In this document: positions 2,266 through 50,919 of the stretch, piece by piece
How positions within the stretch are numbered: the first letter of the stretch is position 1
How the letters are laid out: each line of letters starts with the position of its first letter
NCBI GenBank assembly: GCA_963841435.1
Contig: CAWJCS010000004.1
Span: forward strand, 1 to 64,000
Source of the DNA: an uncultured delta proteobacterium
GTDB taxonomy: Bacteria; Myxococcota_A; Polyangia; Polyangiales; Polyangiaceae
Direction of reading: 5' to 3'
Length of the DNA stretch: 64,000 bases
Position numbers and translations under genes: made by a program
The notes under the pieces: model-generated
Told to the model about the DNA's origin: nothing
Database searches by the model: none
The model's input: only the letters and a program-made list of their open reading frames with translations

Positions 2266-2450
2266 ATGTTCGCTTTTGCCAACGGCCGATCGGAGTCATG
2301 GGTGGCGGACCGGACCGGGCACCGCTCATCCCAAATGCTCGCCCGGTACAAGCGCCAGGCGCGCACCGCGGCGGAGCTTGACCTAGGCGACTGGACGCCC
2401 CTGGACGTGGCCCTGGGGCTCGCGAAGCGCTCGACACCACCCGGTGGCCC
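2266..2450 (+). mobile_element. Tyrosine recombinase (integrase) C-terminal remnant
   Basis: FANGRSESWVADRTGHRSSQMLARY resembles the GH...Y box II of tyrosine integrases. The HxxR and N-terminal parts are absent. It sits next to the tRNA 3' end. Confidence 0.65.
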
Positions 2451-5415: not shown

Positions 5416-7971
<2,556 letters not shown>

Positions 7972-21814: not shown

Positions 21815-21886
21815 AGCCGACTGTCGGACTTGAACCGACGACCTGTGCTTTACGAAAGCACTGCTCTACCACTGAGCTAAGTCGGC
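21815..21886 (-). tRNA. tRNA-Thr (anticodon CGT), CCA not encoded
   Basis: GCCGACT-TAGCTCAGTGGTAGAGC-A-GTGCT TTCGTAA AGCAC-AGGTC-GTCGG TTCAAGT CCGAC-AGTCGGC-T. Confidence 0.96.
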
Positions 21887-47995: not shown

Positions 47996-48360
47996 GCGCC
48001 CCGCCCGGCCCCAGCCCGGTGCGCGTCACGCTGGTGGAGGAGGAAGTGATCCGCGACGGCGGGCCCCGCACCGTGCGCTATTCCGTACGGCACAACGCGG
48101 GCTGGGTGCACGCGACCTCCCACCCGAGTGCGGCGGTAAAATCCCTGGATCGTGGCCCGGGGGTCGTGTTCCGAAGGCACGTCACGCTGCTGCTCGCCCC
48201 CGGCACCGAGGTCGAGCGGGTCGCGCTCGGTCCGGCGCGTCGCACTGCCTCGACGCTCGAGCACCTTACGGGTGGCGCGCGTGGTCCTCGGCAGCGACGG
48301 GACGCGACCCGGTTGCGCGTGGGCTCGAACGGCGCGCTCGAGCCCGAGGGTACAAAATAA
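47992..48360 (+). CDS. Small hypothetical protein
   Basis: GTG start overlaps the upstream stop; ORF ends just before the hairpin terminator. Confidence 0.6.
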   Translation: MSAPPGPSPVRVTLVEEEVIRDGGPRTVRYSVRHNAGWVHATSHPSAAVKSLDRGPGVVFRRHVTLLLAPGTEVERVALGPARRTASTLEHLTGGARGPRQRRDATRLRVGSNGALEPEGTK

Positions 48361-48397
48361 CGCGAGGGCGGCGTCGGTTTCCCGAGCCGCCCTCGCG
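48352..48397 (-). terminator. Intrinsic terminator for a minus-strand transcript (possibly bidirectional)
   Basis: CGCGAGGGCGGC / GCCGCCCTCGCG stem with an inner GAAA-capped hairpin on the minus strand, followed by TTATTTTG. Confidence 0.8.
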
Positions 48398-50058
48398 GAA
48401 GCTGCTTGCCAGTGGTGGGCGCCATCGCGCCGCCTGCCGAGGTTCTCACCGGCTCCCCGATCCGGAGATCGGGGCATCGTTGACGACGAGTGGGTTTTCC
48501 GAACATCGTGACCGCTCGGGTTCGCGCCCATTGGTCACGCGAGGATGGCGACGGTGTTGGCGTTCGCCAGCTTCGATCGACGGGTGCCGGTTGCATCTCG
48601 CCCTCGTGGGGCTCGGCGCGGCGCAAGCGCCACGCGTGCCGGACCCTCTGCGCCGTTGGCTGAGAGAGCCCAGGGTCGGTGCCGTCGATGTCTGACGCTC
48701 CCTGTCGGCTCGCGGCCACCCCGCGCCGGCTTTCCAAGCTGCCGGCCGAGGCCGCCGACCCTTTCGGGTCGGAGCCGCGTGCCCAGGGCACCGGGGCGCC
48801 CACACCCGGATTAGGGATGCAGAGCCACGTGGTGCCCGAAGCGTCTCGTCCTGTCGATGCTCGCAGTGTTGCCACCGTGACTGCCGATCCCTGGCCTTTG
48901 GCCAACGACGCGGGGCAGGACGGGCCGAGCTTCCAGGCGCCTCCGCGCGGCTCCGTCGAGAGCACACGCGGCCACGCCGTGGATCGGGCCGGCCGAGCGT
49001 CCTTGCGGAACTCTGCCTGCCCTGGACCCGTCGATCGAGGACGTGCAAACCCACTTGTCAAAGATCAGCACCCGCGGTTCCGTGTCGGATTGCCGTCGCC
49101 GGGCCCGTTAGGGTCGGCGAGCGGCGGGCGTTGCGATTCACGTCGCTTCACCCGCTTCGGCTTCCGGACCCGCGCTCCGCATCGGCGTTCTCTTCCGAGG
49201 GGGGGCACGGCCCGTTGGCCTCTGACGCTTCCGGGCTCGCGGGGCGAGCGGTCTTGCGACGCACTCGAACCACGCACCCTGCACCTGCCGCCCCGGAGAC
49301 TCTGGCGTGAACCGAGACCCGGATGCGAGCGGGTGAGAAGCGCCTTCCATCGACGACGAGAGCCCAAAAGCTCGCGCCCCGCACATCGCTGTGCGGGCAT
49401 GCCGCGCATTCGGCGAACGGGGGACGAGTCCCACGCACGCCTAGACTCACCCGGTCCGACACGGCCGCAACCGCGCCCGACTCGGGGGAACCACACAGCA
49501 AGCGCCGACTTCTGCAGTCGACACGAAACCCGAGCACACCCGCCGGTGACCCGTTACCTCGTCCGCCGCGCGGTCACCCTCGCGGCGGTTGCCAGGTTTG
49601 GCTACGAGCGGCGAGATGCGAGCTTTCGCTCGAGCCCACCGGCCGTGTCGCCCCTCTCGAGCACGCACATGGCTGTGCGGAGGCCCAGGAGGAGACGGTC
49701 ACGGGCTCCCTTCGTCGTCGTGCTCGCGGGTGGCGCAGCCTGGAGCGCTGTGCACTCACGAGTTGACCGAGGCGATCACCATGTGCCCGCGCGAACGGAC
49801 GCACGGTGGTTGCCGCCAGGAAGCCTTCCCGCCACGAGATGCCGCGCCCGGAGGCGCTGCACGCCACCACCACTAGGGTGGCAAACGACGCTTTTTTCGC
49901 GCGCCGCGCGACTGCCCTCGACGAGGCCAGGGCGCAAACGTGCGGCAACGAGCACCGACCAGGGTGGCTCAGCTGCCAGCCCGGTCGCCGCCCGCTGCGG
50001 CGTCCCCGTGACGTTCTGCGAAACGTGTCACCCGCGAGCAGATGTGCCGCGAGCTTCA
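48353..50058 (-). ncRNA. Candidate giant (~1.7 kb) structured non-coding RNA of unknown class
   Basis: No credible ORF; promoter and terminator at the two ends; nested 10-13 bp long-range helices; multiple GNRA/UNCG tetraloops on the minus strand. Confidence 0.75.
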
Positions 50059-50064
50059 TTAAAT

Positions 50065-50093
50065 AATCTAACCACCGAAGCGTCATGATTCAA
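50065..50093 (-). promoter_or_regulatory. Sigma70-type promoter driving the candidate ncRNA
   Basis: TTGAAT (50093-50088), 17-bp spacer, TAGATT (50070-50065), in an AT-rich patch. Confidence 0.75.
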
Positions 50094-50199
50094 GCCCAAA
50101 ACGCGCATGATCGTTGCTATTTTTTTCCACAGCTTGTCTTCAGGTTTCGGTCCCGCCGGGGTTGATGTAGTGAATCGTGCTCTCGACCAAGGATAAAAA

Positions 50200-50406
50200 G
50201 TGCCGATCGATCTTGGGATTCTGCAGGGTGAGCGCGACCTACTCAGGGAAGCGCTGCGTGAGACGGAAGCCGACGTCCGCAAGGTCGAGGCAGATCTCAA
50301 GACGCTTCGCCAGCGCGAGATCCAGACGAAGCGCGAGATTGAAGCGCTCACGACTCTGATTGAGATGAAAGAGCAGCGCGACGCGAAGGGACCGGACGCC
50401 GGCTAG
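50200..50406 (+). CDS. Small coiled-coil protein (68 aa)
   Basis: AAGGA Shine-Dalgarno before GTG; heptad-like E/R/L pattern. Confidence 0.7.
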   Translation: MPIDLGILQGERDLLREALRETEADVRKVEADLKTLRQREIQTKREIEALTTLIEMKEQRDAKGPDAG

Positions 50407-50409
50407 CGC

Positions 50410-50826
50410 TCAGAGCTTCGTCTTGCCGAGCTCGAGGACGCGGGCGAACTCGCCCGGCGTGACCGGTACCACCGAGAGGCGAGAACGCCTCAAGAGCTGG
50501 ATCGAGGCGAGCTTCTTGTCGGCGCGAATGGCTTCGAGTGAAACGGGGCTGGCCAGCGCCTTCACGGGCGCCACGTTAACGGCGGACCAGTCGCCCTCCT
50601 TCGCGGTCGGATCGGGGTAGGCCGTGCGCGCGACCTTGGCTACGCCGACGACTTCCTTGCCCTCGTTCGAGTGATAGAAGAGCAGGAGATCGCCCTTCTT
50701 CATGGCACGCAGGTTGTTGCGCGCCTCGAAGTTTCTGACGCCGTCCCAGCGCGTGAGCTTGTCCTTCTGCAGCGTTTCGAAGGCGTATTTGTAGGGCTCG
50801 CTCTTCACCAGGAAATGAGCCGGCAT
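50410..50826 (-). CDS. EVE domain protein (PUA-like)
   Basis: LVKSEP, WDGVRNFEARNNL, GDLLLFYHS and RLSVVPV motifs. Confidence 0.92.
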   Translation of the reverse strand: MPAHFLVKSEPYKYAFETLQKDKLTRWDGVRNFEARNNLRAMKKGDLLLFYHSNEGKEVVGVAKVARTAYPDPTAKEGDWSAVNVAPVKALASPVSLEAIRADKKLASIQLLRRSRLSVVPVTPGEFARVLELGKTKL

Positions 50827-50919
50827 GGCGCGGACGATAGACAAGCCCCGTGCTGCTTGGAAGCGCCCATCGCTCCGCGCGTCGCCCCCGCGGGCGTTCG
50901 CTCGATGCGCCGAGGGGGG

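Follow-up and report, generated by a model that had tools for sequence, protein, structure and literature searches.

A 64-kb window (the whole stretch of DNA analysed, 64,000 nt) of a genome from the Polyangiaceae, a family of soil myxobacteria, contains on its minus strand, at positions 48353-50057, a single-copy gene for a predicted non-coding RNA of about 1.7 kb. The gene is approximately 1705 nt long and extends from a conserved 5' motif, GAAGCUCGCGG, to a U-tract, both ends being predicted from conservation. Comparative analysis shows that the predicted RNA folds into a closed, multi-domain secondary structure, with strong covariation in three independent alignments. The RNA belongs to no described family, and it is the family and its architecture that are new. 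Taken as a whole, we hold with high confidence that the locus is best explained as a conserved gene for a closed multi-domain non-coding RNA with a putative sigma-70-type promoter and, as we infer, DnaA-linked synthesis. An earlier reading of the sequence alone had proposed a stand-alone, rRNA-sized, structured non-coding RNA with its own predicted promoter and terminator, and this proposal survived all computational tests that we ran, with several corrections to its details that are described below.

In an alignment of homologs, sequence conservation begins sharply at 50057 and stops at the U-tract. GC content is flat across the three codon positions from about 48400 to 50050 (0.66-0.76); the flanks on both sides have a GC3 of 0.8-0.93 versus a GC2 of 0.4-0.5. 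Long open reading frames are present on both strands of the region, as they are elsewhere at 70% G+C. A Pfam search of the long internal ORFs recovered no family, and the blastp matches to ORFs of the homologs were trivial (17-31 aa) and limited to 2 of the 11 sense ORFs of at least 30 aa. Indel lengths in five homolog comparisons were divisible by three in only 9/49, 5/50, 3/47, 0/28, and 2/26 cases. Substitution periodicity did not separate the RNA (0/30 windows) from the flanking coding control (1/24 windows) and was dropped; the non-coding assignment is based on codon-position GC and indel phase instead. The 1.7 kb are thus non-coding, as had been proposed.

Full-length homologs of 1.57-2.49 kb were recovered at 34 Polyangiaceae/Polyangiales MAG loci, in several more genomes and on 12 metagenome contigs, and a full-length copy is also present in a complete, single-contig 12.32-Mb genome, at positions ~1,546,170-1,548,100 of the minus strand. 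In all of the homologs the sequence begins with the same conserved 5' motif and closes with a conserved hairpin followed by a U-tract, and base pairs rather than a reading frame are conserved. Among the pattern matches in genomes, 34 of 55 were followed at a distance of 1.57-2.49 kb by the 3' domain in the same orientation; this was true of none of the eight pattern matches in unrelated phyla. For the metagenomes, 12 of 32 pattern matches were confirmed over 0.8-1.8 kb by nhmmer. Six of these 12 contigs cover the RNA from about 15-25 nt past its 5' end to a point shortly before the terminator; transcript-derived assembly and breaks at blocks common to co-occurring strains are equally good explanations, and we give this pattern no weight as a sign of expression.

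A covariance model of the 3' domain (R1) detected the RNA in 35 of 151 genomes of the family, distributed over 28 of 89 sampled genera and almost always as one copy per genome. It also detected the RNA in 10 of 151 genomes of the order, including two of nine from a second, sister family. The RNA is therefore more widespread than a class "specific to this lineage," the wording of the sequence-only reading. Two weak R1 matches outside the order (class-level search, E ~5e-4) were rejected because neither locus matches the full-length nhmmer profile.

The distribution is nevertheless patchy. Within the genus, 43 of 47 genomes lack the gene, as does roughly three quarters of the family sample, and it is therefore not essential; judged from these genomes, the RNA is dispensable in many lineages. 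Three syntenic congeners carry the RNA, and in three equally close relatives the site spans no more than ~100-150 nt; the presence of close relatives with such an empty site implies that the gene has often been lost. One of them retains half of the terminator hairpin, which argues for loss by deletion and against a target that was never occupied. The same flanking genes are found in three other genera, and this shared syntenic site across four genera argues for vertical descent. Consistent with the earlier statement that no reverse transcriptase, transposase, or homing endonuclease is adjacent, we found no integrase, transposase, reverse transcriptase, or other mobile-element gene among 53 flanking ORFs of 23 loci. 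A gene for a 68-aa coiled-coil protein lies divergently, approximately 140 nt from the promoter. In at least six other lineages the neighbors are wholly different (FadL-type porin, SRAP, PepQ, LigB, and others) and the RNA and its promoter are intact.

The two ends of the predicted RNA pair with each other. The 5' strand of the closing helix (50049-50057, minus strand) pairs with GC-AGCUUC (48398-48405, minus strand) to form helices 1-2, which are 100% and 95% paired. The pairing GAAGC/GCUUC proposed previously occurs in all members of the genus and is replaced in other genera by GAAGU/ACUUC, a compensatory swap of C-G to U-A; in distant homologs 72-93% of cells are paired. Immediately downstream is a putative intrinsic terminator (48353-48397, minus strand), which comprises a stem at 48397-48361 with a GAAA loop, followed by UUAUUUUG. 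This hairpin, too, was as described, and its stem covaries: 95.7% of cells are paired and 14 of 16 pairs have changed on both sides. The loop, of the GNRA type, is GUGA or GCGA in other genera, and a U-run ends all homologs. A simple terminator scan picked up no more than a shorter sub-stem (48375-48359). A convergent gene on the plus strand ends at 48360, so that its stop codon lies within the U-tract, and these 3 nt of one stop codon are the entire overlap of the RNA gene with coding sequence.

The fold is better described as three domains of ~470-590 nt, each closed by a long-range helix, plus a 3' domain than as the "about four domains" suggested initially, and at least two of the domains share a module. 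Domain 1 (49538-50039, minus strand, as are all elements of the fold) is closed by 50039-50018/49562-49538 (helices 4-5), which is 93-94% paired, and 63-72% paired in distant homologs with 8-12 of 20 pairs changed on both sides. Domain 2 (49068-49537) is closed by 49537-49517/49089-49068 (helices 25-26; 99% and 93% paired), which remains 80-82% paired in distant homologs with two-sided change at 8-9 of 21 pairs; it includes ~170 nt of insertions specific to the source genome. Domain 3 (48480-49064), closed by 49064-49047/48499-48480 (helices 42-43), holds the conserved UCUUUGACAA..GCACGUCCUCG block. In distant homologs its closing helix is only 54-60% paired, and its sub-helices 48690-85/48580-75 (helix 60) and 48670-58/48654-42 (helix 63) are 83-86% and 93-96% paired, respectively. 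The 3' domain (48408-48474), the part captured by model R1, consists of a hairpin at 48474-48455 and a branched element at 48453-48408. Throughout the molecule, conserved junction and loop motifs are interspersed with peripheral hairpins of variable length.

Covariation was assessed by comparing each alignment with slid versions of itself. In the 36 matches to R1, 92.4% of cells are paired versus 33-43% when slid, 36 of 40 pairs show two-sided change, and 226 cells carry such changes versus 21-29; the R1 alignment, like that of the module model R2 described below, was fitted to its model and is hence biased toward the model structure. Across the whole molecule within the genus, 89% of cells are paired versus 38-42% slid and 394 cells carry two-sided changes versus 79-102, figures that are inflated because the RNAalifold structure was derived from the same 11 sequences. 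Projected onto distant homologs that were not used in its derivation, the genus structure is 56-59% paired versus 38-44% slid. The long-range helices reach 80-97% in this projection, and most peripheral hairpins show background pairing, reflecting either misalignment or real non-conservation. Thus, compensatory base pairs exceed those of the controls, as expected of a structured non-coding RNA.

The single sequence also carries a signal above chance. Minimum free energy z-scores are -8.76 for 48353-49066 and -4.69 for 49067-50057, with none of 20 shuffles as good. Perfect inverted repeats are in excess, both as 10-mers (16 versus 6.9 +/- 3.5, reached by 3 of 200 shuffles) and as 12-mers (4 versus 0.53, 2 of 200 shuffles). 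A de novo search for covarying stacks in a fast 42-sequence alignment yielded 13 antiparallel versus one parallel (length at least 5, C at least 0.3); this search is a rough control only, as many of the short stacks are spurious. A further model, R3 (48569-48704), was discarded: its cut split helix partners and gave a wrong consensus structure, and it had three matches only.

Of the five internal long-range helices proposed from the single sequence, four lack conservation or yield to better-supported pairings. The 5' strand of 50029-50040/49721-49732 pairs instead with 49562-49538 in 11/11 genus sequences (helices 4-5), and 49721-32 is part of a covarying arm of the module (helix 9). Likewise, in 49455-49464/49080-49089 the segment 49455-64 lies in an insertion exclusive to the source genome, and the partner of 49089-78 is 49529-17 (helix 26; 80-82% paired in distant homologs). 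The pairing 49149-56/49328-35 is incompatible with a conserved hairpin, 49153-43/49136-26, and that of 49026-38/48573-85 gives way to helix 60, whose strands CCGAUC (48580-75) and GAUCGG (48690-85) covary (CG:9, UA:2). Only 49047-59/48485-97 corresponds to a conserved element (helices 42-43), although it lacks two-sided changes. The tetraloop hairpins fared better: compensatory changes have preserved those at 48455-74, 48755-72, 49251-60, and 49619-32, and the one at 49378-97 falls in a genome-specific insertion.

Alignment evidence also shows that a predicted module of ~135 nt is present in both domain 1 and domain 2 and, in one lineage, also in domain 3. In the source genome this three-way junction (model R2; 49699-49831, minus strand) lies in domain 1, scores 103.7 bits, and comprises GGAAGG, a closing helix, a UUCG-type hairpin, and a second arm. 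On distant loci R2 had 43 matches in 31 of 39, with 86% of cells paired versus 36-48% slid, 37 of 40 pairs two-sided, and 356 cells with two-sided change versus 42-69. A second, degenerate copy near 49350-49219 in domain 2 reaches 13.4 bits (E 0.11) in the source genome and is significant in nine other lineages. Two to three sense matches occur within the RNA at 9 of 39 loci, and one lineage has three copies, the third in domain 3. In addition, a domain-1 profile matches domain 2 in 10 RNAs, and a comparison of domain 1 with domain 2 of the same molecule outscored all 30 shuffles in 6 of 24 molecules. From the recurrence of the module in several domains it follows that internal duplication accounts for at least part of the molecule's growth. 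Full triplication of the domains was rejected, as domains 2 versus 3 and 1 versus 3 were at shuffle level (0/24 molecules each). Profile matches from domain 2 to domain 3 exist, and these are weak and possibly come from misaligned rows; the third module copy and a homology of domains 2 and 3 are therefore only weakly indicated.

Upstream of the 5' motif are a -35 hexamer, TTGAAT (50088-50093, minus strand), and a -10 hexamer, TAGATT (50065-50070, minus strand), separated by a 17-nt spacer. In homologs the -35 element begins TTGA or TTGC at an equal distance from the 5' motif, and the -10 element reads TAGATT, TAACTT, TACATT, or CATAAn. The promoter named by the sequence-only reading is thus present, and at 42 homologous loci the 5' motif is preceded by this layout, but just 8 of its 12 positions agree with the consensus, which falls short of the scan threshold, and a consensus promoter scan listed none at this site. 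We regard it as a putative promoter of the sigma-70 type. Immediately 5' of the -35 hexamer, an A-run followed by a T-run occurs in nearly all 42 upstream regions, in genomes of ~70% G+C; in the window this presumably UP-element-like tract occupies 50094-50122 (minus strand), between the -35 and a 9-mer, TGTGGAAAA (complement TTTTCCACA), at 50123-50131 (minus strand).

This 9-mer, ~66-74 nt upstream of the 5' end of the RNA, resembles a DnaA box, the consensus of which we take it to represent, and is the sole TGTGGAHAA match in the 64-kb window. The 7.8-Mb genome has 28 exact TTNTCCACA sites, one of them just upstream of dnaA. An exact box in the same orientation lies no more than 120 nt upstream at 41 of 42 homologous loci (1-3 per promoter), and at least two sites, allowing up to one mismatch, are present in 33 of 42 upstream regions, against a background of 0.07 per kb. 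Box positions cluster near -75, -90/-100, and -110. Consensus 9-mers (TTNTCCACA) are thus conserved in position, as expected of a DnaA-controlled promoter. Together, the conserved promoter, the UP-like A/T-rich tract, and the one to three helically phased putative DnaA boxes suggest that RNA synthesis is probably strong and coupled to DnaA, i.e., to replication or growth state. An interpretation of the boxes as part of oriC was rejected, given that dnaA is unlinked and the RNA is absent from most relatives. The dnaA gene is on another contig in the source genome and is not linked in five of six genomes checked; in the five other genomes it was megabases away or on another contig in four and 16 kb away in one.

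No known RNA family accounts for the locus. Rfam models gave no match in the RNA region when the whole 64-kb window was searched at gathering scores, none in 48000-50400 at E values up to 10, and no family in eight diverse homologous loci at E up to 1. The only Rfam matches in the window are two tRNAs, both outside the RNA gene. The covariance models of GOLLD (RF01998), ROOL (RF03087), and OLE (RF01071) did not match, nor did those of RNase P, tmRNA, 6S, SRP, and other housekeeping RNAs. There was no SSU or LSU rRNA match, and the flanks are protein genes rather than an rRNA operon. The domain V/VI model of group II introns likewise had no match (E up to 10 in the window region, up to 1 in the eight homologs), and there is neither a reverse transcriptase, in the internal ORFs or among the 53 flanking ORFs, nor insertion into a host gene, as the RNA lies between two genes that abut in relatives. 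These searches bear out the earlier remark that hallmarks of rRNA, RNase P, tmRNA, and introns are lacking. A weak RsmW match in the terminator of one homolog (28.6 bits versus a gathering score of 52) is at chance level. We found no large RNA from Polyangia, Sorangium, or Myxococcota in Rfam or in the openly accessible full-text literature.

We considered several other explanations for the conservation at this locus. Selection might act on the DNA itself, as a cluster of DnaA boxes, a regulatory intergenic region, or a decayed gene with no functional transcript, and both the boxes and A/T-rich tract conserved at one end and the loss of the locus in many relatives are in keeping with this. However, DNA-level constraint does not predict compensatory pairing over the whole 1.7 kb, and here two-sided changes keep Watson-Crick and G-U pairs in helices whose strands are 100-1650 nt apart. 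Furthermore, conservation is bounded by the promoter-proximal 5' motif and the terminator, the boxes span only ~50 nt outside the conserved body, and dnaA is unlinked in most of the genomes checked, so that we judge this explanation highly improbable. Even less credible is a protein product, either a low-complexity protein that evolves fast or a short ORF, possibly leaderless, whose start would be the AUG at 50059-50057. Long ORFs on both strands would be expected anywhere at this G+C content, and AUGAAG does stand at the predicted 5' end in about half of the homologs. The region nevertheless has no codon-position GC signal, Pfam match, or conserved ORF, and most indels are not multiples of three. 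The leaderless ORF in particular was rejected, since this position is not a start codon in many homologs (CUCGAAG, AGCGAAG, GACGAAG, UACGAAG) and in one homolog a single extra nucleotide interrupts the first 15 nt of the conserved block.

The transcript could instead act in cis, as a long leader, a 3' UTR, or an antisense RNA controlling the 68-aa coiled-coil gene or the convergent gene ending at 48360. The overlap of the terminator U-tract with the stop codon of the latter, the divergent promoter ~140 nt from the former, and the recurrence of the same two neighbors in three other genera would fit such a role, which we nonetheless consider very unlikely: no same-strand gene precedes the terminator, coding overlap is confined to the 3 nt of the stop codon, the RNA and promoter are unchanged beside different neighbors in at least six lineages, and the neighbors persist unchanged in genomes without the RNA. 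The multi-domain fold with paired ends, the presence or absence at one locus in close relatives, and the patchy distribution might also point to a mobile or selfish RNA, intact or decayed: a group I or group II intron without an ORF, a retroelement RNA, or an RNA carried by phages, as GOLLD and ROOL are. Against this, the intron and other Rfam searches (E up to 10 in the window region, up to 1 in eight homologs) were negative, no reverse transcriptase, integrase, transposase, or phage genes are nearby among the 53 flanking ORFs of 23 loci, no gene is interrupted, and the RNA is single-copy, occupies the same syntenic site in four genera, and left half a terminator hairpin at one empty site. 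A mobile origin thus seems remote.

Our preferred reading remains a trans-acting RNA gene, for which we propose the following model. The RNA would be transcribed from the putative sigma-70-type promoter behind the UP-like tract and one to three helically phased DnaA boxes, and transcription would end at the intrinsic terminator. The product may be a structural RNA that is stable, acts in trans, and adopts the shape of a compact particle; its repeated modules would serve either to capture several copies of a single partner or to pack together as a covalently linked pseudo-oligomer. Given that there is an RNA, we would put this picture of the product at slightly below an even chance. One might go further and envisage a new, rRNA-sized class of bacterial RNA that arose by tandem duplication of a ~500-nt structured unit, folds as a covalently linked pseudo-oligomer equivalent in a single chain to the RNA-only multimers of GOLLD, ROOL, and OLE, and operates as a DnaA-gated machine, either catalytic or a large RNP particle, an idea that we regard as doubtful. 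A ribozyme is less likely than a structural RNA and, in our view, rather improbable.

Provided that it is transcribed in the predicted form, this RNA would, to the extent of our searches, exceed in length every other structured bacterial RNA except those of the ribosome. The system is also tractable, with sharply defined ends, a diverse alignment (~40 lineages at <90% identity), and natural knock-outs in the form of the empty-site relatives. The promoter with phased putative DnaA boxes would provide a functional handle by linking the RNA to replication or the cell cycle, and the module repeats bear on the evolution and folding of very large RNAs. We call the RNA new with respect to family and architecture only; in its mode of action it may turn out to resemble scaffold RNAs of a familiar kind.

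Among known systems, OLE RNA (RF01071) is similar in being a large, ornate, chromosomal bacterial non-coding RNA that is vertically inherited within one lineage and has conserved junctions and variable hairpins. However, OLE is ~0.6 kb long and occurs in anaerobic Firmicutes, whereas the RNA described here is 1.6-2.5 kb, belongs to Polyangiales, and has predicted DnaA boxes at its promoter and internal module repeats. OLE also has partner genes, and the flanking ORFs here include none of that kind. GOLLD (RF01998) and ROOL (RF03087) are likewise very large structured RNAs with many covarying helices. According to a 2025 cryo-EM paper (PMC12286853), their structures are RNA-only homo-oligomers, GOLLD is the largest of the three ornate classes analyzed, with many members >800 nt, and both are encoded in phages or prophages near tRNA islands. 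Our RNA is two to three times longer than GOLLD and, unlike the phage-borne GOLLD and ROOL, sits at a stable chromosomal site without phage genes; since those RNAs form RNA-only homo-oligomers, its covalently repeated modules may be a natural analog.

The 23S and 16S rRNAs share with it their size class, paired ends, several domains with long-range closing helices, a conserved core with lineage-specific expansions (1.57-2.49 kb here), and an A/T-rich upstream promoter tract, but this RNA matches no rRNA model, is single-copy, lies outside rRNA operons, and is absent from most relatives. Group II intron RNAs resemble it in their multi-domain fold, adjacent 5' and 3' ends, and length (0.6-2.5 kb); in contrast, this RNA has no intron model match, reverse transcriptase, or host gene, is single-copy, and has its own predicted promoter and terminator. 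Finally, the titrating RNAs of the CsrB/RsmZ type also carry repeated units in one transcript and, as may be the case here, could bind several copies of a partner. Whereas the repeats of those RNAs, which measure 100-350 nt, are short GGA hairpins, the unit of this RNA is a three-way junction of ~135 nt set inside a globally closed fold.

The minus-strand RNA gene (48353-50057, ~1.7 kb) belongs to no known family. Over the whole window, Rfam matches are limited to two ordinary minus-strand tRNA genes (2523-2596 and 21815-21886), both away from 48353-50093, and a search of 48000-50400 returned a best match at E 0.46, far under gathering scores. No Rfam 15 family was found for the gene in the window or for eight diverse homologs, in line with the sequence-only reading, which saw no rRNA, RNase P, tmRNA or intron hallmarks. 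In the full text of openly accessible papers, we found no large RNA of this kind described for Polyangia, Sorangium or Myxococcota.

The window genome (7.8 Mb) has one copy of the stretch. Within the genus, BLASTN detected colinear, patchy matches in 3 of 46 other genomes (congeners G005, G014 and G049), with the same flanking genes and a similar span. In the four-way alignment, conservation begins abruptly at 50057 (GAAGCUCGCGGCACA...), the last 130 nt are highly conserved, and conserved islands lie in between. R1, a covariance model built from these four sequences over the 3' 140 nt, recovered no genus members beyond those four. In a sample of the order it gave single matches in 10 of 151 genomes (7/23 in family f1, 2/9 in family f11 and 0 elsewhere), and in a family sample it matched 35 of 151 genomes and 28 of 89 genera. 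The guess that homologs exist in Myxococcota was sound; the proposed restriction to this lineage was too narrow, given the 28 genera and family f11. Outside the order, a class-wide sample gave just two weak matches, which were not backed by the full-length profile and were rejected.

Scanning metagenome contigs for an exact pattern from one central island yielded 32 loci, 12 of which match the region profile over 0.8-1.8 kb; the other 20 are without a match. Six of the metagenome contigs (L047, L054, L065, L068, L070 and L075; 1.15-1.6 kb) are almost entirely RNA homolog, and in four of these the sequence runs from 15-25 nt inside the 5' end to a point shortly before the terminator stem. The six may have been assembled from transcripts, or may reflect assembly breaks at blocks common to co-occurring strains. 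A 5'-motif scan of one genome per species gave 55 loci. Eight come from unrelated phyla, approximately the chance expectation, and the remainder from Polyangiaceae, Polyangiales, Labilithrix, Myxococcales or delta-proteobacterial MAGs. R1 follows on the same strand 1.57-2.49 kb downstream at 34 of the 55 loci (0/8 in the unrelated phyla), and all 34 end in a hairpin and then a U-run. A complete 12.32-Mb single-contig genome also carries a full-length copy. At L155 (G335:C31, ~2300-2450, minus strand), in an unrelated genome, the chance match to the 5' pattern came from a ~32-nt direct repeat (…CCGCGGTCAAAAGACCGCGGCCCCATTGAAGC) with ~66-nt spacing, resembling a CRISPR array.

Several lines of evidence argue against a coding role. 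At the ~70% G+C seen throughout, long ORFs arise in all frames and carry little weight. Codon-position GC distinguishes the flanks (GC3 0.8-0.93, GC2 0.4-0.5) from 48400-50050, where the three phases stay level at 0.66-0.76. No Pfam family was found for the three longest internal ORFs, no conserved ORF was found among homologs, and indels between homologs are rarely multiples of three (0/28 to 9/49). The original impression of low-complexity ORFs without real coding thus survives all of these tests, and indel phase together with the absence of a conserved ORF further excludes a coding role for 48353-50057.

Support for a conserved fold comes from covariation, judged against controls with displaced pairing partners (“slid”). 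Across 36 R1 matches to the 3' domain, 92.4% of cells pair (33-43% slid), 36 of 40 pairs are two-sided, i.e., both bases have changed, and there are 226 two-sided cells against 21-29; none of 500 column shuffles reached any of these measures. Because R1 was built on four closely related sequences, the remaining rows are new data, although the alignment was fitted to the model. For the whole molecule, RNAalifold on 11 genus-level sequences (55-92% identical) gave 551 pairs in 74 helices, with 89.3% of cells pairing (38-42% slid), 198 two-sided pairs (59-78) and 394 two-sided cells (79-102), counts that are circular in that they and the structure were drawn from one alignment. In an independent projection, the genus structure was mapped via window coordinates onto distant homologs in a sequence-only alignment. 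In sets of 9 and 36 sequences unused in the derivation, the paired share of cells was 56.1% and 58.7%, compared with 38-44% slid. Helices anchored by motifs hold up: the closing helix (72-93% paired), 50044-41/48478-75 (82-89%), 49825-18/49711-04 (86-90%, 5-7 of 8 pairs two-sided), 49537-17/49089-68 (80-82%, 8-9 of 21 two-sided), 48690-85/48580-75 (83-86%), 48670-58/48654-42 (93-96%) and the terminator (84-93%). Most peripheral hairpins are at background, which may reflect misalignment or true turnover. A second covariance model (R2), derived from the same 11 genus-level sequences and covering a three-way-junction module at 49699-49831, matched 43 times across 31 of 39 distant loci, with 86.0% of cells pairing (36-48% slid), 37 of 40 pairs two-sided and 356 two-sided cells (42-69 slid). 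Compensatory changes, the check named in the sequence-only reading, are thus above slid controls in the R1, R2 and whole-molecule alignments. Single-sequence folding points the same way, with z of -8.76 and -4.69 and 0/20 shuffles as stable.

On the minus strand, the molecule is closed by a helix between 50057-50049 and 48405-48398, as first proposed. Its strands are GAAGC/GCUUC in this genus, whereas most other genera have GAAGU/ACUUC, a compensatory swap. A second 5'-3' contact joins 50044-41 to 48478-75. Between the ends lie domain 1 (50039-49538), domain 2 (49537-49068), domain 3 (49064-48480) and a branched 3' domain (48474-48408), followed by the terminator (48353-48397), which is capped by a conserved GNRA tetraloop, GAAA in the window RNA and GUGA or GCGA in other genera. 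Several single-stranded motifs are conserved and recur (GGAAGG, GCGUCAGAGG, CGUGAA, CCGAAGC and CGGGUGCUCG), GCGUCAGAGG twice in the window RNA, 530 nt apart. The length range of homologs (1.57-2.49 kb) resides in peripheral hairpins, and the window genome alone has ~170 extra nt in domain 2 (~49500-49400 and 49372-49290). One of these insertions brings in another copy of the CGUGUCGGA strand and so gave rise to the perfect 10-bp helix originally drawn at 49455-64/49080-89. That helix and three other internal long-range helices were unconserved or had strands taken by better-supported pairings. The pairing 49047-59/48485-97 matches conserved helices 42-43, which are invariant or changed on one side only; most, not all, of the named hairpins are real.

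Parts of the molecule are repeated. R2 has two or three sense-strand matches within one RNA in 9 of 39 distant loci (at +267, +889 and +1431 in locus L117). The domain 1 profile matches domain 2 in 10 RNAs, and the domain 2 profile has 30 matches in domain 1 or 3. Direct local alignment of domains 1 and 2 scored above every one of 30 dinucleotide shuffles for 6 of 24 molecules (1/24 for reversed sequence); for domains 2 and 3, and 1 and 3, it did so in 0/24 each. In the window RNA, the second copy (49219-49350) scores 13.4 bits (E 0.11), at background level. From these comparisons we conclude that a ~135-nt three-way-junction module has been duplicated; complete triplication of a ~500-nt unit is possible.

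The predicted promoter, TTGAAT-17 nt-TAGATT, has both hexamers in place; it matches only 8 of 12 consensus positions, and a consensus scan listed nothing at this site. The case for it rests on conservation: 42 loci share an A-run, a T-run, TTGA or TTGC, 17-18 nt and an A/T-rich hexamer 7-9 nt before GAAG. Within 120 nt upstream, 41 of the 42 carry an exact TGTGGANAA, always in the same orientation, and 33 have two or more sites at no more than one mismatch; the background in the rest of the loci is 0.07 per kb. The sites fall into bins around -75, -90/-100 and -110, suggesting a spacing of about one helical turn. The complement, TTNTCCACA, is the DnaA-box consensus. Such sites number only 28 in the window genome; one immediately precedes dnaA and another is at 50123-50131. 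Directly upstream of dnaA (G000:C5:959111-959132), an exact box has a one-mismatch neighbor, as autoregulation would predict.

Such boxes could belong to oriC. We rejected this, because dnaA is mostly remote: it is on a different contig from the RNA gene in the window genome and in two of five other genomes, lies Mb away in two more, and is only ~16 kb away in the last (G144:C2:431400-449728, the one genus with such proximity among those checked). The boxes thus accompany the RNA gene and lie outside oriC. No cluster of at least two exact boxes within 400 bp was found anywhere in the window genome's assembly, and exact boxes therefore do not readily point to oriC. Given boxes beside the promoter, we infer that a strong promoter is probably under DnaA-dependent control.

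The stretch 48353-50093 lies between two plus-strand genes: a convergent uncharacterized gene (TAA at 48358-48360) and, on the promoter side, a 68-aa coiled-coil gene (50200-50406), followed by a minus-strand EVE-domain gene (50410-50844; PF01878, E 4.6e-42). Because the terminator U-tract is the complement of AAAATAA holding the convergent gene's stop codon, a single hairpin may terminate both genes. The coiled-coil and EVE-domain genes are conserved as neighbors in 45 of the 46 other genus genomes, with or without the RNA. Three other genera keep the RNA between the same flanking genes; other lineages have different neighbors (FadL-type porin at five loci, SRAP, PepQ and LigB at two each, and others). 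Among 53 flanking ORFs of 23 loci there was no integrase, transposase, RT or phage gene, extending to homologs the earlier remark that RT and transposase are absent nearby. Three congeners no more distant than the carriers (77-80% identity in the EVE protein) have only ~100-150 nt separating the flanking genes, and one of these RNA-less relatives, G043 (L043, ~6884-6960), retains the loop and a single arm of the terminator hairpin, which points to deletion. The picture is of an old gene, vertically inherited and frequently lost. Vault proteins are RNA-associated in eukaryotes, and in one MAG a convergent 690-aa protein with a Major Vault Protein shoulder domain (L121:3278-5350, plus strand; PF11978, E 2.3e-32) is encoded 30 nt past the homolog's 3' end; this is so at 1 of 23 loci and is probably coincidence.

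The molecule has several marks of a stable, abundant structural RNA: its ends pair, the terminator folds into the conserved body, a conserved core bears expansion segments, the promoter looks strong, and the gene is inherited as a single chromosomal copy. If the gene is transcribed, a trans-acting scaffold or particle has just short of an even chance, catalysis is improbable, and other, unnamed roles take the remainder. The repeated modules suggest either multivalent binding, with several copies of one partner bound, or packing of the modules against each other within the molecule. A cryo-EM study calls GOLLD, at >800 nt, the largest of three analyzed classes and reports that GOLLD, ROOL and OLE form homo-oligomers (PMC12286853). 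Intramolecular packing of the modules would echo those assemblies within a single chain.
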